A stretch of DNA of 62,070 nt, filler included, from Nemertoderma westbladi (taxonomy: Eukaryota; Animalia; Xenacoelomorpha), in NCBI GenBank assembly GCA_032718475.1. It is 3 parts of 3 records of this genome, joined end to end, with 100 filler letters (N's around TTAATTAATTAA, not from the genome) between each part and the next. Parts side by side here need not be neighbours in the genome. Positions count along the whole stretch, not along the records: positions 1 to 31,307 come from JAUCBJ010004938.1; 2 more parts are not named here. The stretch is one strand, 5' to 3'. Below are positions 2,147 to 62,070 of the stretch, in pieces (the first letter of the stretch is position 1; each line of letters opens with the position of its first letter). A program made the translations under genes and the position numbers. Below the pieces are notes generated by a model, which worked only from the letters and a program-made list of their open reading frames with translations, did not search any database and was not told where the DNA came from.

Positions 2147-2806
2147 TTATTCAGTTAGTATTTGTAGAGAAAGCAATACTCCACCGAATACAATACCAAC
2201 TGTAAATATTTGAGACATACCAATAACAGTCTCTGCCCCACTTTTTGTAGTAGTAGTTTCCACAAGGGCAGCCGTACTTGTGGTTTTCCTGTCTTCGTCA
2301 AACTGCCAAGTAAGGGGCCCGCATTGTTCAGTGCCATTACAGCACTGGACTTGACACGACTTATCAAGGAGGGTGAAGTGGTTTACCAACCAACCCTCGA
2401 TCATCCCGACGTATTTGATGTATATTTCTTGATCATCACGTCTTTTCTCCTGATGAAGAGTAAGCTGATACATACAACCCTTTTCATTCCCGGGCAAACA
2501 TTTATCAAAGCATTCCACTGCTACCCACTCGAATACAACCTCGTCGTGGTTATCTTGAATATATTCCGTCACGTATCTGAGAGTGAACTGGAAACAAACA
2601 CCACACCAATCTAAATCTTTCGTTTTATTGAAAGATGACAATTGACTTGCAAGATCGTATATCTTGTCGACCCATTCGGTTCGAAGGGCCTCGTTCTTTG
2701 AGTAGATGTAGAGTTTCCCCCCTTGTTTACAATCGGCACCCCAACTAATAGTTAGGTGCAACGCTGCCAAAACGATCTTTAGTATAAATATCAGTGAATA
2801 CGCCAT
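2147..2806 (-). CDS. Orphan secreted or cell-surface Cys-rich protein (signal peptide, 10 Cys, Thr/Ser stalk, hydrophobic C-terminus); possibly Ly6/uPAR-like and GPI-anchored
   Basis: 219-aa ATG ORF in AT-rich DNA with hydrophobic N-terminus ending SWG-A, a CQVQCCNGTEQC motif, KTTST...TTTTKSG stalk and terminal hydrophobic stretch. Family assignment is inference. Confidence 0.7.
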   Translation of the reverse strand: MAYSLIFILKIVLAALHLTISWGADCKQGGKLYIYSKNEALRTEWVDKIYDLASQLSSFNKTKDLDWCGVCFQFTLRYVTEYIQDNHDEVVFEWVAVECFDKCLPGNEKGCMYQLTLHQEKRRDDQEIYIKYVGMIEGWLVNHFTLLDKSCQVQCCNGTEQCGPLTWQFDEDRKTTSTAALVETTTTKSGAETVIGMSQIFTVGIVFGGVLLSLQILTE

Positions 2807-2916
2807 AAATTAACTGAATCTTTTATTTTATGAAAGAGGGTTTGATCGTTAAATATGTATATGAATCAAATAATATTTGTTTATATTGGAATAAAGAGGT
2901 ATGTCGTGTTCACAAA

Positions 2917-8744: not shown

Positions 8745-9002
8745 CCACCTTGGTGTAGTGGTTGCATTGAATTCACATCTCCCGTAGGTCGTGGGTTCGA
8801 TCCTCACATGGGCAAGGGCAGTTTTCGTTTCGGCACGAATGCTTTAAAGGGACCAGCCAGGGCGGGCGCATCTCTGCCTTGCATCCTTAAGTGGTAGCTA
8901 AATGAGTACTGGAGTTTCCTCTGGGGAGTAAAGTTCTGGGGGGACCGCACTGGAAATAAGTCGTCAGACTTTGTGCGTAATCCCTGGCCATGTTTTTTTT
9001 TT
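8745..9002 (+). mobile_element. tRNA-derived SINE with conserved central domain
   Basis: TGGTGTAGTGG A-box, GGTTCGATCC B-box and GCCTTGCATCCTT...TAAATGAGTAC core shared with the SINE at 10289; T-rich end. Confidence 0.7.
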
Positions 9003-9158: not shown

Positions 9159-9768
9159 CGATAGTACTAGATCGTGACAACAGTCTAAAACAGGCGAAAA
9201 CAGTTGGAGTTTAGGGAAAACAGTCGAAAACAGTTAGATCGTTTAAAAATAATCATCCATGCATCCAGGTGAAAATAGATATTGAAGTTAACTAGGTGTA
9301 ATAATAGATTTAAAATTTAGTAGCTTTGTTAGTGGTGTTGTTTAGTAGTTTTGTTTGTTCTGATAATGGCGAAACCGCTGGAAGCGAAGATACCGGCACT
9401 TCGTACTTCAACATCTTCTTCTATCGTGCCGGTACGGGTGCCGGTACAATAGACTCATTGAATACTCTACTCTGTAGGCTTACTGCCGTACTGGAGTAAT
9501 CCATATCATGCAACAGGTAATCAGTGTTATTGTACATGGGTTATGGGTAGAACGTCATCTTAAGTTAGCGACATTATAAATGCCACTAAATTTTAAATCT
9601 ATTATTACACCTTAGTTAACTTCAATATCTATTTTCACCTGGATGCATGGATGATTATTTTTAAACGATCTAACCGTTTTCGTCTGTTTTCCCTACATTC
9701 CAACTGTTTTCGCTTGTTTTCGCTTGTTTTCACCTGTTTTCGACTGTTGTCACAATATAGTACTATCC
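9159..9768. mobile_element. Mutator-like MITE, about 170-bp TIRs, 9-bp TSD
   Basis: GATAGTACTA...TAGTACTATC long inverted repeats; TSD AATTTGGGG at 9150-9158 and 9769-9777. Confidence 0.9.
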
Positions 9769-10288: not shown

Positions 10289-10522
10289 GGCGGGGTAGCT
10301 CAGTTGGTTGAGCGCCGGGCCTGCAATCTATTGGTTGTAGGTTCAGCCCCGCCAGGGTCCACTCAGCCTTTCATCCACTGGGGTCGATAAAATGAGTACC
10401 AGTTAAATAACTGGGAGCAAATCTTGGGATAGGAGTAGCGCCCACCCCTACCCTCGGGTAGCAGCTATCGAAAGAGGAGCCTTCGGGTCGCCTCCGGCTT
10501 CGGCCGACTGTTTGCTTGCTTT
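10289..10522 (+). mobile_element. Full-length tRNA-derived SINE with 12-bp TSD
   Basis: GGCGGGGTAGCTCAGTTGG head, CTCAGCCTTTCATCC...GGTCGATAAAATGAGTACC core and TTGC tail. TSD TAATAGACATAA at 10277-10288 and 10523-10534. Confidence 0.9.
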
Positions 10523-11751
10523 TAATAGACATAAAATTATTATTAATAATGAATTCAACACATGAATGACGATTTGAATACAAAATTTATATTATTTATA
10601 AAATTTATTTATATTTTTAAACTCGCTATATTTTACTCGTGATATTTTTCATCTTTCGATATTTTTAACATAACCAAAGGCTAACAAATTAAAGATAAGG
10701 TATTAAATTACTAATTTTAATAAATCTCTTTTCAATTTTAATAAATTTAATTTTAGGAGTGATGAGAAATTTCATTAAATTTCATTCCCTTTTGACAAGT
10801 TATTTTCGAAAAAACGTAAATGATATTATTATGTAAAATAGCGGAAGAGTTTGAATTATTCCTTAAATTTTAAACACTTTATCGCAGAAAGACCTCTTTG
10901 ATGAAAAATTTTTTTTTCTGCGCAAAAGAAAAATAAGTTTCATGTTTTTAAGTTTTTAATAAATTTGCAACGTTCCGAGCAATATGCTCTAAAGCTGTGA
11001 TGTGGTGCTTTGAGCGTCACGAGAATATCATCATAGCGCTTATAAGTTAACATAATGTAATTATAATTTTCTAAAATTCTAACTTTAACACAATGAATCT
11101 CAATCATCATGTCCTTAACTACGCTGTACTGTAACATACAGTACATTAAATCAATACTTGTTTTAATCCAATTTTCCTGTTATTACAAATACTGTAGGCC
11201 TATCATAGGAAGACACTGCGTTACAGTGAATTATTACTGTATAAACAGTATCCACAGTTGTTGTAGGATAGCTGGATTGTTGCTTCAAGTTGAATGACCT
11301 ATTCTTGTGAAGCATATTAATATACTCTCCATTACACCCTTAGAACATCTAATCTCCCTTTGGTCATCAATACATGCTGTAATAATTAATTATCCCAACC
11401 TTACAGTACATAGGCAAGTCAATAACCTGGTGTAAACACAGTTAGCACAGCGCGATAATATCCCCGCTTATTATAATTTATTATTTTTTTACTTAATACT
11501 GTAAATTGCCTTTATTTACGAACTAAAGAGGACGATTGAAGAAAGGAATATGAGGTGCGATATAAAATTTCACTTTATACTCTAGAGTGATATAAAATGT
11601 GCTCTTTTTTTTTAACAACATCATGTAAAGTGTTGAATTTAAATTACTGCATCCCCAGATCCCCGCCCCGCATGCCAAGCATACTTACACAAACAAAACA
11701 AAACATACACAAACAAAAAAAATAGTTATTTGCACCACGAGTTCGATATCA

Positions 11752-12452
11752 CTACAACATAAGTTCTTCTTCAATAGGAACGCCAGTCAACCCGTTCACT
11801 AGATTCCTCGCTGCCAACGTCGCCATCTCCGTTCGGGTGCGCATGGTCGCGCTCCCGATATGGGGCAGCACGATGCAGTTATCCAACGCTAGGAGCGGGT
11901 GGTCTGGCCCGAGCGGCTCCGGTGACGTCACATCCAATCCCGCGGCGCCAATAACCCCGTCTCGCAGGGCGTCGCAGAGATCCCATTGGTTAACAACACC
12001 GCCGCGACTAACGTTAACAAACACAGCGGTTCGTTTCATCGCGCTAAAAGTTTCACTATTAAACATCTCCTTAGTGGCTGCGTTCAACGCGCATGTAACA
12101 ACAACAAAATCCGATTCGGCTAGCAGCCGTTGGAGGGAGACGTAGTCAGCGTAGGGGACCCGTTTGTCTGTGGGGCCGCAGTACAATATCCGACGGGGAT
12201 TGAAAGCAGACAGTTTAACGGCTACCGACTGTCCAATACGACCCATTCCCACAACACCAACGGTAGAGTCGTATATACCCGTCCCGCACATCCACATCGG
12301 TTGCCATGGCTCCCAGAGTCCCTGCTTTACGGTGCGACTCGCTTCTATCAGTCTCCGCGTTACGCTCAGTAGGAGAGCCACCGCTAGTTCCGCAGTCGCC
12401 TCAGTTAGAACTCCTGGGGTGTAACCGAGTTTTATTCCTCTCGATCTCAGGG
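11752..12452 (-). CDS. GRHPR: Glyoxylate reductase/hydroxypyruvate reductase, exon 2
   Basis: ALRSRGIKLGYTPGVLTEATAELA, GVVGMGRIG NAD(P)-binding motif, VNVSRGGVVNQ, GLDVTSPEPL and LPHIGSAT. AG acceptor at 12454-12453 keeps the frame. Confidence 0.95.
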
Positions 12453-13592
12453 CTATTCAACTCCATAACTTCAACGTTTACGGTCAGTTAGTGAATTTTG
12501 CATTTGGGGAAGTAAAACCAAGTACTACTGTAATGTATGAAAAAACATGTTCAACATCTACAACGAGTATTTTCTTCAGAGAAAATATTGAAAAAAAATG
12601 TTCAACGTTTGTTTCCGATGTAATACGTAATTCTTAAATTGAAACTTTTTTAACTCCTGCCTGATGAGATGATGCCTTCATAATGTTCAATAATGTGCAA
12701 ACCTTTTCTACTCCGATGCTCTTTCAACATTAGAAATAAATTTTAGAAAATCCACAAAAAATATTTTTTATTAAATTGTTACTTTTTCGCCAAAAAAATA
12801 TACCCCAAAATCGGGAGAAAAAGTAACCCATAGCATTGATTTTATTTTTTTCCCGGCGAAAAAAGTAAATTAAAATATTTTTTGTTCAGTTCAACATTGT
12901 TTTCATATCTGATAAAAAAATGTTGCAGAACATATTTTTTTCGCGAAAATTGCCACGAATGCGACGTTTGCGCTGCCAATATATTACGTCAAATAATTTT
13001 GATGCATTTATGTCAACTTTTTAGCGTTCTGGTGATATCCTCGTAACGTAACGCAGCAAAGTACCGCTTTGCTGTATTGCGGCCTATAAGACGAAATGCT
13101 GCAAAGTTATCACTAACTTAGTAACAATAAACTTCTAGAATATTTATTAAGTTGAAGGCTAAGTGTAAGATTATTTATTTATTGATTATTTAATCTATTT
13201 ATAGTACATTTACTGCAATTAACTGAAGAAAAATGATATGAATATAATTAATATATATACCAAACGTTACAGTATTAAAGCTAATGATAAGCATTCAGAA
13301 CGCCGATAAGTTGACATAAATCGATAAATGTAACAAAATTACGTCCGCCATTGTGAGAAAAGTGTACTATTCAGCGGTTATGGCCCTCGTATATTTATGT
13401 AAACCTCGCTCGCTGCGCTCGCTCGGTACATAAATACACTACGATTACTGCACAGCTGCATAAATAACGCTAAAAGTGCAACTTTCCACCAAATGGTGTA
13501 AATACTATAGATATTTCTGACGTTTACGACATTCGCGGCTGCACCACATCCGTGGAAAAATGGACCTCAGAAGTTATGGATTTGATTGGGAC
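12453..13592 (-). other. 1140-bp GT-AG intron of GRHPR with inverted-repeat ends
   Basis: Splicing ACAG|GTCCCA...GAATAG|CCCTG gives DHIDLT-A-LRSRGI, colinear with GRHPR homologues. A CACTAAC branch-like motif lies about 35 nt upstream of the AG. Confidence 0.85.
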
Positions 13593-13953
13593 CTGTAAGA
13601 TCGATATGATCATAACCAACAGACATGGTACTAATAACCTTAAGATTCTTCGCATTGTCAGTCAACTCTTTGTCGATTTTATCTGAGAGGGTGCAGTAGA
13701 GTCCATGGACATCCTGGACAGCCTCTAGAAGACGTTCCCTGGGACACTGGGTAGGATAATCCCATTTATCGATAACAAAGTTAGCCTTTTGTAGATGTTC
13801 TAGCGCCTCCAAAGGAATCTGCCGTGAAACAAATACTTTTTGTGCCGAAGACGTCATGGTCCGATATCGGAGTCGGTTTATCACGTAACGTTTTTTCCAA
13901 GTACCTCTTACATGTTGAGTAACACGAGTTTGTATCAACGATGGTAAATTCAT
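13593..13953 (-). CDS. GRHPR: GRHPR exon 1 (alternative ATG at 13857)
   Basis: KVFVSRQIP...GLYCTLSDKIDKEL...NLKVISTMSVGYDHID matches the GRHPR N-terminus. Confidence 0.92.
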
Positions 13954-15263
13954 AACACTAGAATAATTTTATACGGAAAAATTGAAAATAATACTATACC
14001 GCATAAAAAATATTATAATAATATAATAATATACCAGTACATATTTATTTACAGCAAAGGTTAACTTAAAGGATGACTTAATTTGATATGGTGTGGTGAT
14101 ATACGAATCACATTTTAGATTTAACATAGCAGGACACTGGACACGTGAACAGCTGGATATTTTTAAACTTGATTGAATTGAAATTATATTGGCAGGCATC
14201 ATGGCACTTACGGCCGGTTTACATGAGGCAACTTTGTCTGCAACCAGTAACTTTTTTGAAGTAGGCCTAACTTCATTATTGTCCGCAGTTTAAACGTGCA
14301 ACTTTTTGAGCAACTTAGATAGTTAGTTTGACTGTAAAATAGCCTAGTGCCAGTGCCACTGGTCTCATAGGAAAAAGGGCCATTATTCAGTTATTCCTGT
14401 ATTATATTATACAGTATTATTGCACATGCACGCAGAGCCTCCCAAAAATTGTGTAACATTTCGCATTATCGTAATCGTTAATTCTATATTACAGTAAAAC
14501 TGCTGCAATTTGTGTAGAGAGAATATTAAACTTACTACGTACAATTTACAGTCAAATGTCTAAAAGAAAACGGCGGCAGACTGGCAGATGCCTGCATCTT
14601 CTTACTTCTACATATTCTGATGTCCACCACCGTCAACCTTTTCATGTCAATGGCTGCATGAGAGCATGGTGTACCGGTACTGCAAACTTTGTGTAACTCA
14701 AACTCAGTAGTCCTACCTTAGGCTACATAGTACTGCAGTACCGGTACCGTACAGCAGTACCGTACCTAACTCAAGGCGTACGCGTACTACACTACAACAG
14801 TCTGACAGTAGCAGTCTGGCAGTAATCTGTTAGTAATTATCTGTTAAAGTAATCGTTAAGCAAGGCATTCGCCTTGCTGAGGGCCTCGCTCATGTGCATC
14901 CGCGGCTCTAGGTCCGCCCTTAAACGCACAGCAGGCCTACACGACTTCGCACAAGCCTCCATCCCACATCCAGCCATCCGCTTGGCAAATGCTGATACCA
15001 GCATAAACTAATTTTGAAATTCCCGCACTCACTACATTTAACAATTTTTTAATTATAAGCTAAGCAACATGTACAGTTAGCAGTGTAGCCTTGGTGTGGT
15101 GGGTGAGGTTCTTTTTGTTATAACTTTTATGTGTCTTTTTATACCTTTGTCTAGTTTGTCATGAAAAAAGCACTAAGCAGCATCAAAAAAGTTAAAGTAA
15201 TCTTTTAGTAGGCGTGGACATAACTGCATAACCTTTGAAATTCCCATGTGTGGCTTTTATGAC

Positions 15264-15811: not shown

Positions 15812-17069
15812 CCTTGTGGGAACTCCGCCCGACCGTGGGGAACTTGTGGGACCCCCGTCCAACCGTGGCGAACTTGAACTTGTGGGACCCCCGCCCAACC
15901 GTGGGGAACTTGTGGGACCCCCGCCCGACCGTAGGGAACTTGTGGGACCCCCGCCCGACCTTGGGAAACTTGTGGGACCCCCGCCCAACCGTGGGGAACT
16001 TGTGGGACCCCCGCCCGACCTTGGGAAACCTGTGGGACCCCCGCCCGACCGTGGGGAACTTGTGGGACCCCCACCCGACCGTGGGAAACTTGTGGGACCC
16101 CCGTCCGACCGTGGCGAACTTGTGGGACCCCCACCCGACCGTGGGGAACTTGTGGGACATCCGCCCGACCGTGGGGAACTTGTGGGACCCCCGTCCGACC
16201 GTGGGGAACTTGTGGGACCCCCGCCCGACCGTGGGGAACTTGTGGGGCCCCCGCCCGACCGTGGGAAACTTGTGGGGGGCCCCCGCCCGACCGTGAGGAA
16301 CTAGTGGGACCCCGCCCGACTGTGGGGAACTTGTAGGACCCCCGCCCGACCGTGGCGAACTTGTGGGACCCCCGCCAGACTGTGAGGGACTTGTGGGACC
16401 CCCGCCCGACCGTGGGTAACTTATGGGACCCCCGCCCGACCGTGGGGAACTTGTGGGACCCCCGCCCGACATTGGGAAACTAGTGGGACCCCCGCCCAAC
16501 CGTGGGGAACTTGTGGGACCCCCGCCCGACCGTAGGGAACTTGTGGGACCCCCGCCCGACCTTGGGAAACTTGTGGGACCCCCACCCAACCGTGGGGAAC
16601 TTGTGGGACCCCCGCCCGACCTTGGGAAACCTGTGGGACCCCCGCCCGACCGTGGGGAACTTGTGGGACCCCCACCCGACCGTGGGAAACTTGTGGGACC
16701 CCCGTCCGACCGTGGCGAACTTGTAGGACCCCCGCCCGACCGTGAGGGACTTGTGGGACCCCCGCCCGACCGTGAGGGACTTGTGGGACCCCTCCCCCCC
16801 CCCGACCTTGGGAAACTAGTGGGACCCGCGTCCGATCGTGGGGAACTTGTGGGACCCCCGCCCGACCGTGGGGAACTTGTGAGGTCCCCGCCCGACCGTG
16901 GGAAACTTGTGGGGCCCCCGCCCGACCGTGGGAAACTTGTGGGGGGCCCCCGCCCGACCGTGAGGAACTAGTGGGACCCCGCCCGACCGTGGCGAACTTG
17001 TAGGACCCCCGCCCGACCGTGAGGGACTTGTGGGACCCCCGCCCGACATTGGGAAACTAGTGGGACCCC
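15812..17069. repeat. 30-bp GC-rich satellite (CCCCCGCCCGACCGTGGGGAACTTGTGGGA), left part
   Basis: Directly visible; 10-aa periodic ORFs in all frames. Confidence 0.95.
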
Positions 17070-17312
17070 TGTTTTGGATTCACTCATTCAATTGCGGACA
17101 ATATAATATGAAATAATAATATGCCGATATGACATTACTGCATTATGTATTCCAGTATTCTTGATACTCATTTTGTCTGACAATATCAGTTCTAACTATA
17201 AAAAAGACACTACTGACTGGTCCGTCTAACACTACTGTACTACCGGTAACACATACTGACTAACACTACTGCTTACAATAATTGGGACTTAGGTCATATA
17301 AATGTCAAGACA
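17070..17312 (-). repeat. 3' LTR of BEL element 1
   Basis: Direct repeat of 23627-23869 with three substitutions found by eye. PPT GAAGGCGGAG is adjacent at 17313-17322. Confidence 0.95.
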
Positions 17313-17335
17313 CTCCGCCTTCAAAAAAAAGTTTT

Positions 17336-19360
17336 TCAATATATATATTCATCATATTCTAAAGGATATAGCAGTTTCAATGGCCTTGTTATAATCCTTT
17401 TTGAAGGGAGAGTTAGTTTGACAGATCGTATCAGCCCGTCATGACTCTGGATAAGTTGAGTTACTTTACCTAACTTCCACAATCCCCTTGGTAGGTTTTT
17501 CTCCTTTATTATTACAATGGATCCTATTTTTACTTCAGTATCTACAGCATGATTCTGTTTAATGTGTCTTTGATATCGTTCTCTTAGGCTGGTAAGATAT
17601 TCATCATTGAATATTGTCCAGCATTGATTTAAATATATCATTCCTTTCTTCCAATACTCTAGTAGGTCTATGGCTTTGGATTTCTTTGTTCCCGGCGTGT
17701 AATCTTTATCCTTCTCATTTTCAATTTCGATATAAGGAATCCCAGGTTTAGTGTTGATAGTTAGAAAATCATTGGGAGTTAGGACGTATCTATCTTCCAG
17801 ATCCGCACCAACGTAAGTTAAGGGTCGTGTATTGACCACAGCTTCTACCTCTGTCATAACAGTATACAATTGTAGATAGTTAAGACGCAATTTTCCTAGA
17901 GTTTTTCGCAGTGTACGTTTTATTATACCAACCATTCTCTCATAGAATCCACCCATCCATGGTGATAGTTCTGGTATATATTTAATGTTTATTCCTTTAG
18001 TGGAAATGTATGATAATACATCTTCATCATTTGTGACCTTCTTCCATAAGTTATTCATGACAGTGTCTGTGAGTTTGAACTGACCAGCATTGTCACAAAT
18101 TATATTAGTAGGAGTTCCTCTCCTAGAGACAAATCGTCGTAAACACATTAAGAATTCTTCAGATGATTGATTAGCAGCTAGTTCGAGATGAATTGATCTC
18201 ACTACTAAACAAGTGAAAATACATACCCATGTTTTTACATTTTCCTTTGAAGGAAGTTGTATGTATAATGGTCCTAGGTAATCTAATCCAATGTGTTGGA
18301 AAGCAATAGCTTCAGTAGTTCTTAGTAAGGGCAAAGGAGGCATAATTGGTAATTTGTAAGGTCCTCCTTCCCATTTTCGGCAGGTCTTGCATATGAGCAG
18401 AACTGACCGCACGGCTCTTCTTCCCTGTGGTATCCAGTACTCTTTGCGCAGGGTTGATAATGTGTGGTTAATCCACGCATGTAGTCTACTTACATGAATG
18501 TGTTCTATTATTAGTGTAGTTAATGGAGATGACTTTGGAAGAAGTTTGGGAAATTTGCAATAATCATCATTACTGATGTTTTCCAATCTTCCATAGCATC
18601 TGATTAGGCCATCGTTGTCTATCTTTAATCCAAGTTGATTAATAAGGTTGTTTCTTTTCCCATTGATGATATCATGTATTATGTCTTTGAAGTGGTTCGA
18701 TTGTATGTATTTCTCCCAAATTAATTTCGCATCATTGATTTCTGTAGTCGTTAGGCATCCATTCAGTTTCGTCTTTCTGTGACAGTTTATACTAAATCTC
18801 TGAATCCATGCAGAAATACGTAGGATTCTGATCCACTTTGAATATTTATTTATGTCTAGTCCAAATGGTGTAGTCTTCATTTCATAAGATTTCTTGGTTA
18901 TAATTGGAAGAGAAGCTTCGAATAGTATTTTGGAGGACATGCAACCATGTATTGCATCAATTGTTTTTTTTGTTATTTCTTCAACTCCCCAATTGGGCCA
19001 TAATGATATATCACTTATGATCCATTTTGGTCCATTCCACCATAATGTGCTATTGTAGAGCTGTTTGGTTGTATATTGGCACCTAGTTGCAATATCAGCA
19101 GGATTATCTTGCGTGTTCACATATCTAAAGTTGATGTTACTTGTATTTCTTATTTCTTTCAACCTATTTTCAATAAACACAGTCATTCTTTTATCACTTT
19201 TGAGCCAGGCTAAAACACATTGTGAATCGCTAAACAGTGTCTTTGTTTCCATTTTCAGCTTTAGTTGTTCTTCAGCGAATTTAATACATCGGATGCCAAT
19301 TACCATTGCCATTAGTTCTAAGCGAGGAATACTTGGCTTTTTTCGTTGATTATCCTTCAA
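17336..19360 (-). CDS. BEL1 pol: RNase H end and integrase
   Basis: IPRLELMA, DSQCVLAW, NPADIATR, H..H...C..C zinc finger, GLDYLGP, CDNAGQF, WMGGFYERMV and WKLGKV C-terminal motif. Confidence 0.93.
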   Translation of the reverse strand: MKDNQRKKPSIPRLELMAMVIGIRCIKFAEEQLKLKMETKTLFSDSQCVLAWLKSDKRMTVFIENRLKEIRNTSNINFRYVNTQDNPADIATRCQYTTKQLYNSTLWWNGPKWIISDISLWPNWGVEEITKKTIDAIHGCMSSKILFEASLPIITKKSYEMKTTPFGLDINKYSKWIRILRISAWIQRFSINCHRKTKLNGCLTTTEINDAKLIWEKYIQSNHFKDIIHDIINGKRNNLINQLGLKIDNDGLIRCYGRLENISNDDYCKFPKLLPKSSPLTTLIIEHIHVSRLHAWINHTLSTLRKEYWIPQGRRAVRSVLLICKTCRKWEGGPYKLPIMPPLPLLRTTEAIAFQHIGLDYLGPLYIQLPSKENVKTWVCIFTCLVVRSIHLELAANQSSEEFLMCLRRFVSRRGTPTNIICDNAGQFKLTDTVMNNLWKKVTNDEDVLSYISTKGINIKYIPELSPWMGGFYERMVGIIKRTLRKTLGKLRLNYLQLYTVMTEVEAVVNTRPLTYVGADLEDRYVLTPNDFLTINTKPGIPYIEIENEKDKDYTPGTKKSKAIDLLEYWKKGMIYLNQCWTIFNDEYLTSLRERYQRHIKQNHAVDTEVKIGSIVIIKEKNLPRGLWKLGKVTQLIQSHDGLIRSVKLTLPSKRIITRPLKLLYPLEYDEYIY

Positions 19361-19380
19361 ACTCTGTTTTGATATTGGGG

Positions 19381-21960
19381 CTAATCTATTTTTGCAAATA
19401 ATAACATTGATTTATATCTAGATTCAAGTGATATCCGTAAATATATTGCTGCTGCGTATGCTGTTTCCGAAGCATCGCAAAAACACAATAAATCAAGTTC
19501 ATAATCCCCCAAGTTTCTCTGTATCTCTCCTTCAAATATATGTCGTGGGATTTGGCATTCACTAATTTTCAATAGTTCGTTGGCAATACTTGGCCACCTA
19601 TTGATTATATTGTCATTGAGTTTCAAATTCCAATCTAGTTTTTCTCCCTTTTGTCTATCTTTCCACACTTCTTGGTATAATACCTTTGCTTGCAATGTGA
19701 TAGGAATGAAATATCCTAACGGATCAAATATCTTTCCTAGGTTCTGCAATATGTCACGAATATTTCTTACCTTAGTTTTAATGTTTGATTCTGCAATATG
19801 TATTTTATCGGCTTCAATATTCCATCCAATTCCAAGTACTTTGGTTACACGTGATTTCATTAGATCAGCAGAATTCATTTTATCAAGTAATTCATTAGAA
19901 TTTGATGACCATTCACGTAGATTCATAGAGGCTCCTTTAAAAATCTCTTTAGACTCAATATATAATTGTTTACCTTCATCTACATCATTCACTGAAGCTA
20001 TTAAATTATCCACATATAAGTTATCCTGAATAACTTGGGCTACAGGCGTATTGGTATTCTCTAAATGGTGTGCGATAACAGCACCAAGCAGATACTGGCA
20101 CGAAATGATTCCAAATGGTATTCGACAAAATCGCATTGTCACAATATTGTTTTTCAATGGTTGCTTTATATCATTTGGGTCTTTATACCAGAAGAAGCGA
20201 GTTACATCTTTATCTGTTTCTTGAATTCCTACTTGTAGATAAGCCTTTTCAATATCTGATATAATAGCTATAGATCTAAGACGAAATCGAATTAGCACCC
20301 CTGTCAAGTCTCTCATCAATGATGGTCCACGATACAAACACTCATTTAGGCATTTGCAATCTTTGTTTTTCTTTGCGCTAGCATTATATACTATACGTAC
20401 CTTTGTTGTTGTTTTAGAGGGTTTAATTACAGGATGATGAGGAATATAATGTTTGATTGGTTTATGTTTGTCATTCTCATCCTCATCACTTACTGTTTCG
20501 ATTATACCATTATCCAGTTGATTGTTTATTATTGCTGAATACTTATCATGTAAATCATTGTTCTCGATTAATCTTTGATGTAAAGATTTAAATCTATTGA
20601 AGGCTAAGTCACGATTTTCATTTGGATATTCATTATTGGGTTTCCATGGCCAACTAACGAAATATCTGTTATTTTCATATTTAACATTTTCTTTAAAATT
20701 TATAATCGCTTGATCATCATCATCATTTATAGTTGGGTCTTCTATTCCAATTATTTCCGTCTTCCAGTAACTTTCGCTATTGTTTATTACATTGGGTTCA
20801 TATTGTTGATCCATATTGTCAAATATCAACATAGATGTCTCATTAAATGACTTATCTTCATTATCAGTATATCTCCCACTGATAACCCAACCAAATGTGG
20901 ACTTTATCAAGCTTGGGCCTTCAGGCAGATTTATTTTCTCACCTGAAATGAAATCTCCATAATAGTCTAATCCAATGAGGAAGTTGATGTTTGTAATCTC
21001 ATTTTCACCTGGAATTGTGTCCGCTAACGGTAAATCTTTCCATATTTCTTCAGATTTACCAAGATCAATTGACGATCTTTCAATTGGCCCAGTTATAATA
21101 TTGACGACATGAACTGTTATTTGTTGGGAATTTCCATTCATATCATATAGATTGATATCTGCTAATTTAAATGGTATCCTGATTGGTTCCTTTCTACCAA
21201 ATGTGTTGGCAACAATTTCGCCTGGATCTCTTTCTACTAAATTCAATTCTTTTGAAAATGAATGAGTAACATAAGTCCGCTTGCTTCCTGTGTCAAAGAA
21301 AACTCGTGTTGTAATTGGTTTCATTTTTGTATGTCCAGGTTTCTGAACATCTATTAAGGCAGTTTGCATTATGACTGACTCGTTAATTGACATTACTGGC
21401 AAACAATTGCTGGGATATCCATTGTTATCTTGCGATTCATTTAACTCCAATCTTTCTTTTGTTGCAACATTTTCAACAAATAAATTTGGACTACCCGCAC
21501 TTTGATTTGAATGTTTTTTATAACATAAGCTTCTATGATGGTTTTTTGTTCTTCCACAGTGAGTACAAGTATAATTATATGTGCAATATCTAGTAGAATG
21601 ACTCTCCTTTAAACAAATGTTACATTTGTTGCTCAAATGCAATTGTTTTTTTCGGGATGCGACATCGGGATATTTGTGGCATTCATCATTCCAATGATTT
21701 CCTGAGCAATACACACATGATCTATTTTCACCAAAGGATCGTTTACCAGCAACTGTTAATGCATGGCTAGTGGGTTTGTATTGCTTATAGTTATTTGGTC
21801 CTGACCAACCTTTATTGGTATTTTTATTATACGATGTTTCATGGTTATTCTTATTATGAATATCTCCGGAAGTCCTTTCAGTTAATGAATCGCGTCTTTC
21901 AGCTGCTTCTCGAGAAGCAATGTATCGCTTGAGGTTATTGCGTAAGGTATTGCTTCCCAT
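19381..21960 (-). CDS. BEL1 gag zinc knuckles, protease, RT and RNase H start
   Basis: Three Cys/His knuckles, FFDTGSKRTY protease motif, YIPHHPVIK, SDIEKAYLQV, YVDN and FCDASETAYAA. Confidence 0.93.
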   Translation of the reverse strand: MGSNTLRNNLKRYIASREAAERRDSLTERTSGDIHNKNNHETSYNKNTNKGWSGPNNYKQYKPTSHALTVAGKRSFGENRSCVYCSGNHWNDECHKYPDVASRKKQLHLSNKCNICLKESHSTRYCTYNYTCTHCGRTKNHHRSLCYKKHSNQSAGSPNLFVENVATKERLELNESQDNNGYPSNCLPVMSINESVIMQTALIDVQKPGHTKMKPITTRVFFDTGSKRTYVTHSFSKELNLVERDPGEIVANTFGRKEPIRIPFKLADINLYDMNGNSQQITVHVVNIITGPIERSSIDLGKSEEIWKDLPLADTIPGENEITNINFLIGLDYYGDFISGEKINLPEGPSLIKSTFGWVISGRYTDNEDKSFNETSMLIFDNMDQQYEPNVINNSESYWKTEIIGIEDPTINDDDDQAIINFKENVKYENNRYFVSWPWKPNNEYPNENRDLAFNRFKSLHQRLIENNDLHDKYSAIINNQLDNGIIETVSDEDENDKHKPIKHYIPHHPVIKPSKTTTKVRIVYNASAKKNKDCKCLNECLYRGPSLMRDLTGVLIRFRLRSIAIISDIEKAYLQVGIQETDKDVTRFFWYKDPNDIKQPLKNNIVTMRFCRIPFGIISCQYLLGAVIAHHLENTNTPVAQVIQDNLYVDNLIASVNDVDEGKQLYIESKEIFKGASMNLREWSSNSNELLDKMNSADLMKSRVTKVLGIGWNIEADKIHIAESNIKTKVRNIRDILQNLGKIFDPLGYFIPITLQAKVLYQEVWKDRQKGEKLDWNLKLNDNIINRWPSIANELLKISECQIPRHIFEGEIQRNLGDYELDLLCFCDASETAYAAAIYLRISLESRYKSMLLFAKID

Positions 21961-22866
21961 TTTTCACTTGGATCTTTAAAGTACTCTAATTGTACTTTTA
22001 CTTCCATTGGTAATTTCGAATAAATCATTGATACAAAAATTGGTTGAGAGATGTTTTCACCTAACCCTTCTAGGCTTCTAAGATTCTTTTCTATTGAATC
22101 ATATGTGAGACGCAATCTACTTGTTTCATTCCTAGAAACAGCCAAATTCATTAATTCAGTATATATGGCATCAATTAAGGTTTGCGTTTCCCCAAATCTT
22201 TCTTTTAACAGTTCTACAGCTACATTATAATTTTCATTAGTCAATTGCAATCCTGAAATTGCCCTTTTGGCTTCACCGTCTAACTTTGTACGCAAGTAAT
22301 TAAATTTCTCAACCGGTTTCAACTCATTTTTACTATCAATAGCTGCTTCAAATGAATCCCAAAATTCACCCCATTTTAATACATTTCCTGAAAAACGTTC
22401 TATAACCAATTTTGGCAGATTAACCTTTACTCTGCTTCCGGCATAGTGAATTGCACGTTGCAAGTTCATTAACTTGCACATTACTCATATTCATTGTTGC
22501 CTCTTCAAGGTTCGCTTGTAGGCCTGTTTGTGCTTTGACTTCATTTTGGTATTCATTGATACATTGTATTCTCACAATTAGACGAGATGAAGAATTCATT
22601 ATTTGATCATTAAATAGTGATACTGTACTAATTTCATTATTCACGGCATCCCCATCATCGTCAGGCAATAAATTTAAAATTTGTTCATTAAGGGTATCTA
22701 AATCTTGACCATATAATTTAAGTTTATTTTTAGTTATTTCAGCATCTTCTAAATTTATTTCATTTCCATCACTCATTAATTCATCAACTATTTTAAATAA
22801 CTTCTTTATATTGGTCCTTACAGCTTCTCTCTTCAACCGCAATTTATTTGTCCCGGTTCCAGGCAT
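21882..22866 (-). CDS. BEL1 gag N-terminus (two overlapping frames)
   Basis: VNLPKLVIERFSGNVLKWGEFWDSF...EKFNYLR capsid-like motif, preceded by a coiled-coil ORF at 22420-22866. Confidence 0.88.
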
Positions 22867-23609
22867 TTCTGCAGGCCTGTTTGATTATTATTTAACAAAT
22901 TTCAGCATTGACTTCAGGCATTACTAATGGCCTGTTATTATTCTGTTTGATAATTATATTATTATTTAACATTGGTCTGTTGGTGTAGGACTATTAGGTA
23001 TACACTCATTGTACAGTTGTAGTACTGGTATCCAACATTATAAAGAGGATATATACAATATACATATATGGGCAGTCCAAGTTAATGCATCTTTGACTGC
23101 TTTAATTCAATCAAACAATGATGGCTGTTTTCCCAAGCACCGGTAGGCAGTAGGCCTATTACAGTATTATTACGAATGGTTAAGTATTAATTATGCACTC
23201 ACCAAATCATCAAATTCTACCTGTCAGCCGATAGCTGTGGACAATCTTTACGTCTGTATGGCATTCCAGATCCTTATATCTGTTACTGTTTGTATGTGGC
23301 GTGGCTCGTTCCTTTTATATTCCAGGATTCGCCAAGTTTAATTGATCCCGATTCAGTATAGGGAATACGTAGCACATATAGCAGTATAGGTAGGCCTGTA
23401 TGCTGTAGCTGTAGGGCCTTAATTAAGTAGGCTGGGCTGTAGGCCTAGCTATTTTATTGTTGATCCCTTTCATTAGCATCAGTACCGGTATCGGTGGAAG
23501 GTTATTCATTTAGTCTAAGCTGTTATCAGATTATACCGTACCGGTACAGCGGTATCGGTAGGCCTATTGGAAATCAGTGTTTTCAGTTTGTTGACGCTCG
23601 AACAGCGTA

Positions 23610-23626
23610 ACCACGCTCTGCTACCA
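23610..23626 (-). promoter_or_regulatory. Primer-binding site complementary to the initiator tRNA-Met 3' end
   Basis: Minus strand TGGTAGCAGAGCGTGGT immediately follows the 5' LTR. Confidence 0.85.
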
Positions 23627-23869
23627 TGTTTTGGATTCACTCATTCAATTGCGGACAATATAATATGAAATAATAATATGCCGATATGACATTACTGCAT
23701 TATGTATTCCAGTATTCTTGATACTCATTTTGTCTGACAATTTCAGTTCTAACTATAAAAAAGACACTAGTGACTGGTCCGTCTAACACTACTGCACTAC
23801 CGGTAACACATACTGACTAACACTACTGCTTACAATAATTGGGACTTAGGTCATATAAATGTCAAGACA
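23627..23869 (-). repeat. 5' LTR of BEL element 1
   Basis: See 3' LTR. Confidence 0.95.
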
Positions 23870-29194: not shown

Positions 29195-29899
29195 ATGGAG
29201 TTACCCGACCTTGGGGAGCATTGCTCCGAACCTTCCTGTCTACAACTGGACTTTTTGCCAATCCGTTGCGCGGGTTGCAAAGAAACGTTCTGCAGACACC
29301 ACTACCGGTACGAGACGCACGCGTGCAGCGCCCCCAGACCCGGTGAGTTCCAGATCCCGGTGTGTCCGCTATGCGACATGGCGGTACCCATGCGACGCGA
29401 CCAGCAACCGGACGCCGTAGTCAGCGCGCACATGGACGGAAACTGTAGACCCCCGGCGAAACCCGCTAAAGTCTACACCAACCGTTGCAATCGAACCGGA
29501 TGTAGGAAGAAGGAGTTGGTGCCCATGTTGTGTCGGGAGTGTGGACTCAATTACTGTATAAAACATCGACTCGCCGTTGATCACCAATGCCCTGCATCGG
29601 CCGCTAAGGGCGCTGCTTCTACATCGTTGGCGGGCCGAGCAGCGGTTACTAGGGCGACCCGACCACCGGAGCCTCGTATCCAACACCCCGTTGGATTGAC
29701 CGAGGACGAAGCGCTGGCCCTCGCCTTGCAGGCCAGTCTGCGGGATCAAACAACCCTAACCCAGCGGGATCCCGCCACACTGACCCAGGAGGAAGCCGAC
29801 AGGATGCTAGCGGAAGCGCTCGCAGCTAGTGAGGCTGCCACTCCCAGACAAACACTCCATCCTACTGACCGGAGGAACAAACTCTGTACTATTTCTTAA
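29195..29899 (+). CDS. ZFAND2B: AN1-type zinc finger protein 2B (AIRAPL/aip-1), intronless, 234 aa
   Basis: MELPDLGEHC start, two AN1 fingers, central CPLC..H..C finger, two UIM-like motifs (EDEALALALQASL, EEADRMLAEALAASE), CAAX-like CTIS end, and AATAAA just after the stop. Confidence 0.95.
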   Translation: MELPDLGEHCSEPSCLQLDFLPIRCAGCKETFCRHHYRYETHACSAPRPGEFQIPVCPLCDMAVPMRRDQQPDAVVSAHMDGNCRPPAKPAKVYTNRCNRTGCRKKELVPMLCRECGLNYCIKHRLAVDHQCPASAAKGAASTSLAGRAAVTRATRPPEPRIQHPVGLTEDEALALALQASLRDQTTLTQRDPATLTQEEADRMLAEALAASEAATPRQTLHPTDRRNKLCTIS

Positions 29900-30285
29900 C
29901 GCCAATAAACTCTTACTAAATAATAATTTATTTTACCATTATATTGTCTCACTCATTATTGTTTTATTTCTACCACTTGGTGCCCATTTACAGTACAGTA
30001 TGTATGTACCGTATGTATGTTATTCTCTTCAACTAATGTTTCCCTTTATGATCTCTCTAACTATATCATAAATTTTGTGAGACCATTACAATAGGGTTGG
30101 TTTCGCGAAAAAATTGTTGGGCTAGAAACAATCGAATAAGGGGTAAGAAGGTGCCCTGAATCGAGTGCGGGGTGTGTTTTTTGTGAAAACACAAGGAATT
30201 GGTCGAAATTGCGGGTTTAAGTAAGCCCGGGAAGTCAATTTTGAAAATCGGCTGTGATTGGCTGCTACATATTTGACGTCACTAC

Positions 30286-30766
30286 TAGGGATGTTGTGAA
30301 TGTCATATTTTTAACATCCGCGGATGCGGATGCAGATGTCTGAGGTGACATCCGCACGGATGCGGATGTGGATGTCTATTAAAACATATATATTTTTGCC
30401 TGGCCTCTCTTTTACATCAAGGTTATACCAGCATTTTAATATTATATTCTAATCTTATATTAATAAACTAACAAGAGTCTAAGGTTATAGAACAGAATGG
30501 GACATAATATAACAAAACAATAAAACAACAAATATTTTTTATATTGTTCCCGTCGAGTGTTAGTGTAATTTTAAGATAAAATAAAAAAAATTTCATAAGG
30601 GAAAAAGTAATTATTATTGAAAATTTAATTGAGTGGTTGCTGGGCCTTCAGACAGGATGCTTGAATAGTGCATGTAACATCCGCATGTCACATCCGCATG
30701 CCATGGGTGCGGATGCGGATGTGAAAAAACATGCGGATACGGATGCGGACATTCGCCACATCCCTA
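30286..30766. mobile_element. hAT (Ac-like) MITE, 481 bp, 8-bp TSD
   Basis: TAGGGATG...CATCCCTA TIRs, GCGGAT/ATCCGC subterminal repeats, TSD GTCACTAC at 30278-30285 and 30767-30774. Confidence 0.92.
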
Positions 30767-31307
30767 GTCACTACGAAGTGCTCCGATAATTTCTTCTATG
30801 TTTTTTTCTATGGAGGGTGATATTGATATCAGATCCATTAAAATACACCTTTAATCTCAATCATTTCACACGTGCTTATTTCAAGTAAAGTCTTGTGCAT
30901 CGTTTGACACCACATTTAATTAAATTCATTGTAATTAACATTGATTAAATTAATCAATTCACAATTATGCAGATAAGGAAACAGTTATAGACCGATCAGT
31001 GACTAAAAGTGTAGATTTGGCTTATATTTCGAACGACAGTTCTTATTCAATAGCCTGACTCAGTTTAACAATAAGAAATTAACATACCAAAATGCACAAA
31101 TCAGTGTTCTGAAGCTACAGTAGCTGTTCCGGTACACAGTGGCCGGTTGTGGTCATGGCCTAATTATTATTACTGCACGTCATTACAATTGTGAGTATAA
31201 ATTAAACTAAACTACTGTAAAAAATAAATTGATTGAAGAATAAAGAGACCGAATTAATTAATATCAAATATGAAAATTTTTAACAAAAATGAAAAAATAT
31301 ATAAAGC

Positions 31308-39693: not shown

Positions 39694-42600
39694 TTACCGG
39701 ACAACTCCCAGTCTCTTTTCAATAAACATAAACGACCAACCGGGCGACCAACCTTGTTGAGTTTCAAAAACAATTCCAGGTTTCTTGAAGTTACGTCGCA
39801 TGACGACGAGTTCCACCGATCTCACTAAACCATCATCGGATATATGAGTCTCGATGATACAACCTGTCTGCCATCTCTTACGGGGAAGATCTGATTCCAC
39901 AATGAGGACCATGTCTCCAGCGCTGACATTTTCTTGCTGCGCAAACCACTTTGTTCGAAGTTGTAGTGTAGGAAGATAATATTTTTCGAAATGGTCAGCG
40001 AAACGACGGGATAATAACTGCATAAGTTGCCAAGTTTGTCGGCAGTACTCGTCTCTGTCTGTTATTTCCGACTGCGGGAGCATGGCTACAGGTTTCTTTA
40101 GTAGGAAATGCGCGGGTGTTAGCGCTTCTAGGGAGTCTGGACTCGATGAGACTGGCATAAGCGGTCTCACGTTGAGATAGGTGGCTATTTCCTCCATTAA
40201 CGTCCACTTACTGTGAACATCTACAATCATCTTGATTTGTATTTCAAGATTTCTAATCAGTATTGGAAACTTAGTGTCAAAGGACAATGGAGTATTGGTT
40301 AATCTCCCTCCGACACGTATTACCCCATCTATCATTGTGCTAGAAAAAGAATCCCTTAAGCGCATCTGTAGATTTCTCAACAACAGGAAATACTTTTCGG
40401 AATTCTCGTAACATTGCAGGAGTCTCAGTATCTGCTTGTTGGTATCATCATGTTCTTGGTAACTGATCTTCTCAGTTAGAAACTTATTGGGTAGCCGATA
40501 AGTGGGAAGGTCTTTGGTAGCATGGACCCTTTCAGCTACTACTGAAGTGGCATCATTAGCGATCTTAGTCCTAGAATAGTGATGATGGAAACATCGTTTT
40601 AAATACACAATGGCTTTGCAAAGCCTATTCCAGGAGCTATAATGAGCCATCACTCTTTGGATGAGAGGAGAGAGTCCTTGTGAGACATCTGGTGTTCTAG
40701 ATTTCCAATCTCTTTCCCTTATTTCTATGACGGATTTATTTATGGTTCGAGTAACATCCATGGATTTGGGGTGATTAGGATCCACAGTGGCATCACCGGC
40801 GGTGTGTAGCACAGACAGATCTATCGCTGGCTTAAACAGCTTTGATTTACTCATCCGGGTTTTCGGTTTGACCTTTCCCGCTCCCTTGGCTTGTCTGATC
40901 TCCGCCGTGGTGAGATAAGGGGGCCATTCCTCCTCTTCTTTACTTAGGAAGTCGGGGCCACCTAACCAATCTGGAGTAACTATCAGTTCTTGAGGAGTTT
41001 CTCCTCTGGATGAGATGTTGGCTGGATTAATCGTCCCAAGGCAATGTCTCCATTAATCTATATTAGTGCGACTGAGTATAATAGCTACTCTGTTGGTAAC
41101 AAAGACAGTGAACTGACAGACTTCATTAGTGATATATTTCAGAACGAGTAATGCATCAGTCCAATAGACAGTTTTCTCTAGTGGATATTCGATCTGTTCC
41201 GTTATATTCTGACCGATGGCTGTAGCGTATAGTGCCGCCTTTAACTCCGCTCTAGGAACCCGCAGTTTGTTGTTTATTAGGGCCTTGGAGGTGGCTAATG
41301 AAACTTTAATTCCATCGGGAGTTTCAACCCTAAGGTAGGCTACTATACCTATTTCAATATCACTGGCGTCTCCAAAAACATGGAGTTGATAGGAATACGT
41401 GGGGAGAACGTGACCGAAATACGAGCGGGAAATCTTAAAGTTCTCGATAGATGGTAAAAAATCCTCCCACTTCATCCTCTTCTTTAGCAGTTCTCCCTGG
41501 AGTGGATCATCCCAAGAGTGGTTTTCGAGCCACATTTGTTGTACCAAGCTCCGAGCAACTAGGATCACGGGGCTAATGAATCCCAATGGATAGAAGTAAG
41601 TGCTCAGAATACTCAGGCAAATCCGTTTAGTTCGAACAGGATTATCACGTTGTTTTAGTTTGAAAAATAAAATGTCTCTCTCCGTGTCCCATTTCAGTCC
41701 AAGGGTTTTAGTTTCGGGAAGATACTCCTTAATGAGGTCAAGATCTTTAACATCTCTATCTTCCACTAGGATCGATTCCAGGAACTCACGGGAGTTACTA
41801 GTGAATATGGTTAGACGAAATCCACCTTGTTGTAAGCACTCTACCGTTCCCTTGGCAACATCGATTGCTTCTTCCACCGATGGGAGGGACTTTAGATTGT
41901 CATCCATATAAATATCCCATTTGATGTTGTCTTTAGATTGTCATCCATATAAATATCCCGTTTGATGTTGTCAATAACCGCTTTAGAGAAGGCGTCTCTA
42001 TTATCGTCGGCAGTGGTGCGCACTACCGAACAAGCGTTCGAGGGGCTCGATATGATCCCGAAAGCCTGGATTGTCATCCAGTACTCCATCAGTTTTCGGT
42101 TGAGGTCCCCTTCAGGCCACCACAGAAATCGTAGGCTATCTCGATCCCTAGCTAACGCTTTAACTTGTATAAACATGCCTTCAATGTCGGAGGCGAAGGC
42201 GATAGAATATTGCCGTAGTCGTAATAATATTCCCAACAAAGATTGGAGTAAGTTGGGTCCCGGCAACAGTTCTGAGTTTAGGGTTTGTCCCATATAAAGG
42301 GCGGAGCCGTCGAACACTACCCGGACTTCGTTTGGTTTACCAGGCTTAGGAACGTAATGGTATGTCAAGTAATACGTTCTTTCGGTTATGGGTGTTTCTT
42401 CCGGTGTTGCTCCGCGTATCCTTTGTTGATGAATTTCTTTAGTTGCATCTTATACATCTCTTTGGCTCGATCGTTAGATGATAAGCGCCGATGTAATTGT
42501 GAGATTCTATTTTCAGCTAAAGGTCGGTTATTAACGAAGCTGGGTTCTCTTCGCCTAAAAGGCAGACCTATCTCGTAGCGACCCTCCTCTTTTAGATAAC

Positions 42601-45600: not shown

Positions 45601-46566
45601 GTGGGGTAAGTTAGGCAACTTAACTCCTAGGGGCGCTCTTCTACGTCCGTTTGAATGGGATTTGTTACCTCTATGCTCGGAATCAGTAGTAGTACCTTCA
45701 TCTGAGGAGGTAAATCCATATCTTCTGGGAGTAGATCGACTCAGTAGTTGCATCTGAGTGGCTGCCCTTTTTTTACTTAAGTAGTCTTGTCTCGCCTGAA
45801 TGCTCTCTAACTTTAGATGTACCTTTGCTTCAGCTGCTCTCCTTTCAGCTTCTACTGTGGCAGCTTTACGTTCTACTTCTGCCGCTGCCGCCTTTCGGTC
45901 AACTTCCGCAGCTGCCGCTGCCACTGCCGCTGCTGCTTTTCGATTAACTTCCGCCGCAGCCGCTGCCACTTTTCTATCAATTTCTGCCGCTGCAGCTTTT
46001 AATTCGGCCTCAGCGGTTGCAGCTTTTTTCCGGTCTTCTATTAATCCTTTCTTTATTTGTTCCTCTTTGTCCATCTCGATGAGAATGCTTTCATCAAATT
46101 TAGCCTTCTCCGTCGCTAACATCTCTGCATCTAAGGAGTCCAAAATGAATTTGGCAGCTTCACTATTTGGGTGAAGTCCAGCTAGGCGTCTCCTTAGCTC
46201 GTTGTCACCTATAAATCGTTGATAATCCGACAGATAGATGTCAATAGCGTCCTTCTTCTGAGGTTTTTCGGATACCTCCTCGCTTTCTACATGGGAGAAG
46301 ATTGCATCTGTTGATTCTCCGTAGGCTAGTCTTTCCGTTAATTGAGCCTTCCATTGGGTTGCTCCCTGGACTTTAACATTCACTCGTTGGAACCAAGTTC
46401 TTACTGCCACCTGCAGTGATGTATCTTGACTTCTCTTCAGGGCCTCTTCAAAAGCTGAAAGGATTAATCTGACCCTTAATATCTGTTGTCTCACTTGGTA
46501 AAGCAGTTCTCCCTGCTCTTGAGGTTCCTGTTGTCGTTGGAATAACTGTGCTTCTATTCGTCCCAA
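39694..46566 (-). pseudogene. BEL2 gag-pol, fragmented
   Basis: Ala-rich coiled-coil N-terminus, KFNGDEMKWLPF gag motif, three knuckles, ALLDSGS protease, SDIEGMF and YMDD RT, FGDAS RNase H, and an integrase with an internal deletion. Confidence 0.92.
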
Positions 46567-51000: not shown

Positions 51001-51056
51001 CCTAATATATAAGAGAGATGTTCTGCAACAAATTTACTCAAATAAATTCCACTTAC

Positions 51057-51297
51057 CACGCGTGTGGCAGAATTTCCAAATTCCAGTATGTAGTGCCTTT
51101 CCAAAATCCACAGTCCTTTCACCAAAGTACATATGAAATAACTCTTCAACGATTAACCAATGATCTGTTGATATGCCAATAATATAACAAGTACAAGCAA
51201 ATACCATAACGAAAGTTTGTGTAACATAAATATATCTTTTAATTGTTTTATTACCAGAAATTGGTTGTAGTCGCAGTGTATTCGTCATTTTAAACAT
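51057..51297 (-). CDS. First coding exon of a claudin/PMP22-superfamily membrane protein
   Basis: Hydrophobic TM1, then GISTDHW...HTGIWKFC (W-GLW-C signature), ending at a canonical G|GTAAGT donor. Confidence 0.75.
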
Positions 51298-51580
51298 AAT
51301 AATAATACTTCTTTGCTGAAATGGAATATCAATGGAGTTCTACATATTATTGGGGGTATGGGCGGCATATATAGCCGCTTTATATGGGCGAATTCACTCC
51401 ACAAGTGCGAGATCATTTGATAACAGGTGGGGTAGCCAATTAAATTCAAGATAACCACGGACTAAGTGTTCCTTTATCGGTACCAGAAATGTTGCCTAAC
51501 TACTGTAAGAACTGGAACTAAAGATATTTGCTACAAACATTTTCTCTCACCACGTTGTTGACTGTTGTTAGGAATGTTAA

Positions 51581-61534: not shown

Positions 61535-62070
61535 CTGTAAAGAACAATTTATTGCAATTTTACAAAGTTTACAATTCATTATAAACCAAAACCAGCATTA
61601 CTGGTTTACTGAATTTGGTTTACTGAATTAATATAATGTGCTCCCATTAAAACTAATCTTCTATAATACCTTATACTTCCTTAGACTACTGTACCTTATA
61701 AACCAGCATTACTATCTCTCTTTACTGCTGTATGAGTTTCTTATTGTTAACATAAAAATGTTTTTGATTATTATATAATATATTATTTACACTACAACGT
61801 ACCCAGTCGACCACGTTGATGGATCATCTGCATACCGGTATCTATCCATTGCTCTTCACTAATTTATCCTTTTAAAGTAATTTATTTTCCCATTGATTGA
61901 CTGCAACTGCACGTTGATTTTGAAATAACTAATTTTCGTCACCGAAATTGCAGAATATAAACCTAGGCCTACACTAGTACTACATAATTGATTTTTGTTA
62001 TTAATATTAAATATTATTAGTATGTACCGATTGGCTTCACTAGTGTGTCTACATGGTTACAATTCCAAGC

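Follow-up and report, generated by a model that had tools for sequence, protein, structure and literature searches.

How does a spliceosomal intron come to carry ends that are complementary to each other, and does its removal depend on them? The question is raised by the GRHPR gene of Nemertoderma westbladi, where an initial annotation, made from the sequence, described an intron whose termini form a long stem and offered two explanations; either an Introner-like element bearing inverted repeats at its termini (TIRs) had inserted into a palindromic target, or the intron belongs to a class defined by RNA structure. We have followed this up across the ‘window’, a stretch of 62,070 nucleotides made up of three contigs joined by N spacers, with all positions counted along the whole. 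Five public runs of one organism contain part of the stretch, none of them recorded as RNA; the contig evidence comes from four runs, referred to as X1 to X4.

The GRHPR gene and its intron

On the minus strand, GRHPR has two coding segments, both of which match 2-hydroxyacid dehydrogenase families in Pfam, separated by a single intron (13592 down to 12453):

13593 to 13953, minus strand: coding part of exon 1 (open reading frame and spliced translation, PF00389; X4 contig over 13593-13837)
12453 to 13592, minus strand: 1,140-nt, phase-1, GT..AG intron (frame, and exact skip by the X4 contig)
11752 to 12452, minus strand: exon 2, coding through the stop codon (PF02826, E 1.9e-54; best homologs 56-62% identical)

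Joining 13593 to 12452 on this strand gives one open frame, in which the segment spanning the junction is 18 residues long; the same length as in 71 of the 74 homolog segments that could be parsed, by pattern, from 120 protein matches. The first ATG of exon 1 is found at 13953, the conserved domain starting with the second at 13857. Between them (13857-13953, minus strand) lies an in-frame, arginine-rich extension of 32 residues, which may be a mitochondrial targeting peptide.

One contig of X4 (depth 1439, with 245 letters on its shorter side) omits precisely 12453-13592, whilst both ends of the intron are present in contigs of X1, X2 and X3 when aligned to the window. On the plus strand the joint reads CT..AC and could slide by 2 bases, the GT-AG register being the one that fits. 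We read X4, a single run whose type was guessed as ‘DNA?’, as a transcript assembly, since the unique bins of the intron are without cover and the depths of the junction bins (222.7 and 394) are just what the exon share of the 1439 would give; the skipping contig would then be a spliced transcript, with an intron-less DNA copy formally still a candidate. The intron is thus at the place first proposed for it, with a seamless joined frame and with the predicted GT..AG sites used exactly in what is probably a transcript from this one run. Its GT..AG borders, the exact removal that restores the frame and the branch-point-like motif near its 3' end (below) fit a U2 spliceosomal intron.

Splice signals

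The donor had been described as weak, the polypyrimidine tract as lacking and a branch motif as present, against a canonical donor in a claudin-like gene of the same window; all four descriptions hold. The features concerned are:

12487 to 12493, minus strand: branch-point-like motif CACTAAC, its A at -36, with a second candidate A at -32
51037 to 51339, minus strand: first exon, Claudin/PMP22-like (PF13903 at less than the curated cut-off); GTAAGT donor at 51056

Scored against a U1 motif, the GRHPR donor reaches -5.6 kcal/mol and the claudin-like donor -10.2 kcal/mol; despite its weakness, the former is the best among the 38 GT sites in 13300-13860. At the other end of the intron, five of the 16 bases from -5 to -20 are pyrimidines, a figure that comes from a single acceptor of this animal. 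The CACTAAC motif likely serves as the branch point.

No downstream exon or acceptor of the claudin-like gene was found on its contig, nor was a second complete intron found in the window by Pfam searches of 33 of the 248 listed open reading frames plus 7 more, and by motif lists. The finding rests on one locus.

Pairing of the intron ends

The complementary segments, or ‘arms’, occupy the extreme ends of the intron:

13570 to 13589, minus strand: terminal inverted repeat, 5' arm (intron +4 to +23), a 17/20 match to the 3' arm
12453 to 12472, minus strand: 3' arm, intron -20 to -1, lacking a pyrimidine tract and containing two upstream AG dinucleotides (-18, -10)
12470, minus strand: X3 variant inside the 3' arm, pre-mRNA A to G, turning an A-U pair into G-U

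The arms, 1,097 nt apart, are reverse-complementary at 17 of 20 positions, including 11 consecutive ones (+13 to +23 with -20 to -10); the inverted repeat begins no more than 3 nt from the 5' end of the intron and finishes on the G of the acceptor. The complementarity is as first claimed, and it is real: a duplex of the two 30-nt ends is worth -21.1 kcal/mol, a value matched by 2 of 40,000 dinucleotide shuffles. For comparison, 101 of the 2,893,189 GT..AG pairs in the window that lie 60-10,000 nt apart score at least 17/20, mostly within repeats.

Folding, which the initial annotation had proposed as a check on the two ends, predicts the stem in both the minimum-energy and the centroid structure of the whole 1,211-nt region, with pair probabilities of at least 0.96 for the core (+13 to +23). 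In this fold the donor (+2 to +7), the acceptor (-4 to -1) and the branch motif are mostly unpaired, the last of these lying outside the confidently predicted stem, and the AGs at -18 and -10 fall within it.

The variant at 12470 is the sole arm variant among the 40 of 195 X3 differences that were listed. Its predicted cost is +0.3 kcal/mol, and the retained G-U pair is uninformative on selection because 32% of the 60 possible single arm changes are equally mild.

Extension of the pairing into the exons

The pairing had also been said to continue across both junctions, and one of the two explanations supposed a palindromic target. The pairs are there, in the following segments:

13592 to 13604, minus strand: last bases of exon 1 and the donor G; predicted partner, the first part of exon 2
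12441 to 12451, minus strand: start of exon 2, +2 to +12, partner of the end of exon 1

Within them, exon 1 positions -12 to -6 pair with exon 2 positions +6 to +12 (probabilities of 0.89-1.0), and the four bases CAG/G that straddle the donor junction (-3 to +1) pair with exon 2 positions +2 to +5 (about 0.6-0.7); these same four are the bases of the GRHPR donor that best match U1. When 15-16 exon bases per side are included, the duplex strengthens to -34.2 kcal/mol, none of 20,000 shuffles being as strong (z -6.1). The evidence for the exon part is weaker than claimed: taken alone it is matched by 329 of 20,000 shuffles and by 489 of 20,000 synonymous recodings, a modest effect (p about 0.02 under two nulls) that is near chance.

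We rejected a bulge-helix-bulge (tRNA-type) intron, the central helix pairing exon with exon and the borders being GT-AG. A mirtron was also rejected, since the loop measures 1.1 kb and a 5' overhang is present.

The intron interior and the search for related copies

Between its ends, the intron consists of other material:

12524 to 13447, no strand assigned: intron interior, largely dispersed repeats, with many other contigs on most bins in all four runs

Inverted arms and DNA folds mark interior fold-back elements at about 12750-12890, 12999-13328 and 13345-13500. With the interior being a stack of other repeats, the original insert probably measured a few hundred bases at most; about 70-80 nt of unique sequence remain at each end (12453-12523 and about 13510-13592). 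At 80% likeness, depth in the end bins of the intron equals exon depth in X1, X2 and X3, whereas most interior bins collect many other contigs; in this comparison contigs show presence rather than absence, and an arm of 20 nt is possibly too little to be aligned. No tandem repeat was reported inside the intron. An Rfam search of 11500-14200 gave one chance-level match (score 17 bits, gathering score 70), and an intron-encoded snoRNA or miRNA was accordingly rejected.

Elsewhere in the window there is no copy of either arm with four or fewer mismatches, and none was seen in the contigs of X1 to X4, where a 20-nt query is possibly too short. Viral contigs gave no matches. Metagenome contigs gave 24, all to a single arm, none of which has an inverted partner within 6 mismatches and in none of which does the similarity run past 37 nt; on both counts we treat them as chance matches and not as relatives. 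A target-site duplication (TSD) was sought in seven symmetric registers (matches of 0/1, 1/3, 2/5, 3/7, 4/9, 5/11 and 5/13) and not found, the sequence common to both sides of the junction being AG alone; a shared AG at the junction is regarded as ambiguous in PMC9860276.

The genome is rich in repeats and in small inverted-repeat elements; the window contains the following:

17067 to 23869: BEL/Pao-type LTR retrotransposon (PF05380, PF03564, PF05585), with 246-nt direct repeats 98% identical
9160 to 9767 and 30275 to 30775: MITE-like elements with inverted ends, the first with 121-nt arms at 93%
59113 to 60462 and 61102 to 61548, minus strand: a 450-residue open reading frame without a Pfam match and an adjoining coiled-coil-like one, possibly parts of a mobile element

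The retrotransposon at 17067-23869 is located inside a 30-nt tandem array, and a second BEL/Pao-type element, broken, is seen near 39700-46900. By eye, there are tRNA-like starts at about 8750-8830 and 10290-10420; ARAGORN calls none of them (0 genes), and they are probably SINE-like repeats.

Intron position and phylogenetic setting

Three of the 74 parsed homolog segments, all mammalian isoforms, have 5 extra residues after KKR, and these residues would mark the mammalian GRHPR intron at about 13 nt downstream of the N. westbladi one. An offset of this kind had been described at the outset, and the three isoforms fit it. That distance is similar to the span of exon 2 that pairs; the putative mammalian site (region 12440-12452, minus strand) lies just beyond positions +2 to +12, which is possibly a coincidence. 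We weighed, and set aside, a 13-nt sliding of an intron from the mammalian position. GRHPR presumably has about eight old intron sites, and a new intron would fall that near to an old site about one time in five.

Three further coding sequences in the window bear on how many introns the animal has:

29195 to 29899, plus strand: ZFAND2-like, uninterrupted (open reading frame, Pfam)
55900 to 56283, plus strand: Elongin B, uninterrupted (open reading frame, Pfam)
2150 to 2809, minus strand: secreted- or membrane-like, with no named identity, uninterrupted (open reading frame, Pfam)

As all three are uninterrupted, the animal appears to be intron-poor. Since the position also differs from the mammalian one, it is plausible that the GRHPR intron is a new gain within an intron-poor lineage. 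The protein collection searched contains no close relative: GRHPR and Elongin B each lie at much the same distance from every named animal. With no more than 59% identity between Elongin B and any animal protein listed, the source lineage would seem to be deep-branching or fast-evolving. The available part of PMC10565955, on intron-poor and repeat-rich animals, holds nothing on paired intron ends.

Comparison with known introns

Introns with paired ends, and introns derived from TIR elements, are already known kinds (PMC11282704, PMC12130899, bioRxiv 10.1101/2025.08.15.670264). A literature search, mostly of papers outside subscription, found no animal GT-AG intron with the arrangement seen in GRHPR.

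Closest in anatomy are the TIR Introners of Micromonas, Aureococcus, Symbiodinium and Acanthoeca (PMC9860276, PMC12130899, reviewed in PMC11282704), with which the GRHPR intron shares a terminal inverted repeat, seamless removal, GT-AG borders and an off-consensus donor. In PMC9860276, TIRs were sought from -20 to +20 around the junctions and found in 72 of 177 Introner families; TSDs were found in 49 of 130, families with TIRs and without TSDs exist, and secondary insertions inside Introners are also described in these sources. That survey covered 835 animal and land-plant genomes and reports Introners in two animal groups only. The GRHPR repeat falls within about 20 nt of both junctions, at 17/20 and with an offset of 3 nt. 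The differences are that Introners come as several similar introns, in families of at least 4, whereas one copy is seen here and no TSD; that Introner family medians run from 30 to 654 nt, as against 1,140 nt, mostly secondary repeat; and that the GRHPR intron adds weak exon pairing. It looks like an Introner relic, and we do not assign it as a member because no family of similar introns is seen in the window, the four runs or the metagenomes.

The sister stwintrons and cropped introns of the Hypoxylaceae (PMC8469720) are likewise U2 introns whose terminal inverted repeats are imperfect (about 73% identity), integrated seamlessly and without short duplications; their TIRs decay, excision being retained, and are dispensable for it. 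These introns are fungal, multi-copy and 90-210 nt long with TIRs of 45-55 nt, whereas that of GRHPR is from an animal, single, and has 20-nt arms. MITE-derived introns of the tunicate Fritillaria borealis (PMC11282704; bioRxiv 10.1101/2025.08.15.670264) are also from an animal, with TIRs and species-specific positions, but are mostly non-GT-AG and accompanied by TSDs and by altered U2AF and snRNAs; GRHPR has GT-AG borders and a consensus-like branch motif. In euglenid nonconventional introns (PMC11282704), a TIR stem near +4 similarly joins the ends and there is no pyrimidine tract, but the borders are non-canonical, a CAG/CTG pair is formed at +4 to +6 with -8 to -6, and the intron is released as a circle; the GRHPR intron does not have the non-GT-AG borders of either group, and differs from the euglenid type in its branch motif and arm bases.

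Where paired ends have been tied to splicing, the resemblance is also partial. Zebrafish (AC)n/(GT)n ‘bridging’ introns have paired ends, no usable pyrimidine tract and no need of U2AF2 (PMC4691745); their arms are dinucleotide repeats, whereas those of GRHPR are unique sequence and so fall outside the simple-repeat definition. Yeast stems (PMC12350175, PMC3239191) are alike in pairing intron ends and in a possible masking of false AGs. The yeast ‘zipper’, as defined in PMC12350175, pairs a segment lying 10 nt or more beyond the donor with one lying 20 nt or more upstream of the branch point, placing the 3' arm upstream of the branch point with a 42-85 nt linker; the GRHPR stem has its 3' arm between branch motif and acceptor, pairs confidently from +8 and is not a zipper. 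Nor does it resemble the local downstream stem of yeast, in that it pairs with the 5' end of the intron.

Origin and role of the paired ends

Our favoured reading, to which we give a probability of roughly 0.45, is that the GRHPR intron is an old inverted-repeat insertion that turned into an ordinary spliceosomal intron and was later filled with other repeats. Of the initial proposal of an Introner-like TIR element, the anatomy stands: a 17/20 repeat lies at no more than 3 nt from the ends, where Introner TIRs were sought, and the off-consensus donor and missing pyrimidine tract fit signals co-opted from the insert; the abundance of small inverted-repeat elements in the genome also speaks for it. 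On the other side, neither sister copies (window, four runs, metagenomes) nor a target-site duplication were found, a TIR leaves the exon pairing unexplained, and Introners are reported from just two animal groups (PMC9860276). The exact skip in one run, the seamless frame, the complementary ends, the splice signals and the repeat-filled interior are observed, whereas the gain, the element origin, branching at the motif and whatever part the stem plays are inferred. In the course of events that we envisage, a small non-autonomous inverted-repeat DNA element would have landed in GRHPR exon sequence, at an AG within a site of weak palindromic character. With a weak donor just outside one arm, and with branch motif plus acceptor at the opposite one, it would have been removable with the protein unchanged; later repeats would have entered its middle, the arms drifting to 85% identity and the family dying out or diverging. 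The U2 spliceosome would now excise the intron, the branch motif standing in for a pyrimidine tract. As the RNA stem would need to be unwound during activation, its contribution may be limited to an early one, namely covering the two upstream AGs, and it would not be the defining signal.

A selected RNA structure, in which the stem brings the weak donor close to branch point and acceptor across a long intron full of repeats, hides the upstream AGs and replaces U2AF, perhaps across a lineage class, accounts for several of the same observations but seems to us rather unlikely. It would explain why the stem recurs in both folds with so probable a core, why donor, acceptor and branch motif are mostly open with the false AGs enclosed, and why the listed arm variant keeps a G-U pair; it also has precedents in the zebrafish bridging introns (PMC4691745) and the AG-masking stems of yeast (PMC3239191). 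Against this, PMC12350175 places the whole exon helix within bases that are threaded through the yeast spliceosome, as it does much of the intron stem (the proximal pairs and part of the core), and the exon helix covers CAG/G, the part of this donor with the best match to U1. Because the stem covers threaded bases, and fits neither the zipper nor the downstream stem as that paper defines them, yeast geometry suggests that much of it must melt before catalysis, weakening the case for an intron defined by structure. The variant, being as mild as so many other changes, lends nothing; none of the 1,328 AG sites downstream of the claudin-like donor on its contig pairs with it above 15/20, though the true acceptor of this donor was not found; and the terminal symmetry of Hypoxylon introns is reported as unnecessary for excision (PMC8469720). 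Very unlikely, in our estimation, is the combined form of these ideas, in which a class of long introns in this intron-poor, repeat-rich lineage, with ends and flanking exons paired, descends from an extinct inverted-repeat element and now acts as an RNA clamp; such a clamp would replace both the pyrimidine tract and a strong donor.

The ends could instead be products of a single event or of none. A one-off local inverted copy of about 30-35 nt from around one junction to the other, by template switch or fold-back break repair and with neither family nor function, would account for single-copy arms, the absent target duplication and the near-register extension into both exons, and template switching is described as homogenising the arms of inverted repeats in coding DNA (PMC8604942). 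We hold this unlikely: the yeast cases in that source have spacers of at most 70 bp, against 1,097 nt between the GRHPR arms and an estimated 150 nt or more even with the interior repeats removed; agreement fails precisely at the splice signals, and aligning 35 nt takes 3 gaps plus 4 substitutions; and the exon part alone is near chance. That an ordinary intron simply has matching ends, picked out from a very large scan of introns, is a reading we find distinctly improbable. The rate for the arms alone, about 3.5-5 in 100,000 per intron, would be reachable in such a scan, and no family, duplication or second example was found in the window, the four runs or the metagenomes; but with the exon extension included no shuffle in 20,000 equals the duplex, and the match falls exactly at the ends of an intron that is unusual in donor and acceptor too.

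Implications

Intron gain in animals is still poorly documented, and surveys require several similar copies, so that old, single survivors are invisible to them. If the GRHPR intron is a relic of an inverted-repeat insertion, as we favour, a scan for introns with self-complementary ends would reveal gains that family searches have missed, and would add an animal lineage to those in which they occur. If the pairing should prove functional and widespread, it would represent a splicing signal with a geometry unlike that of the yeast or zebrafish cases.
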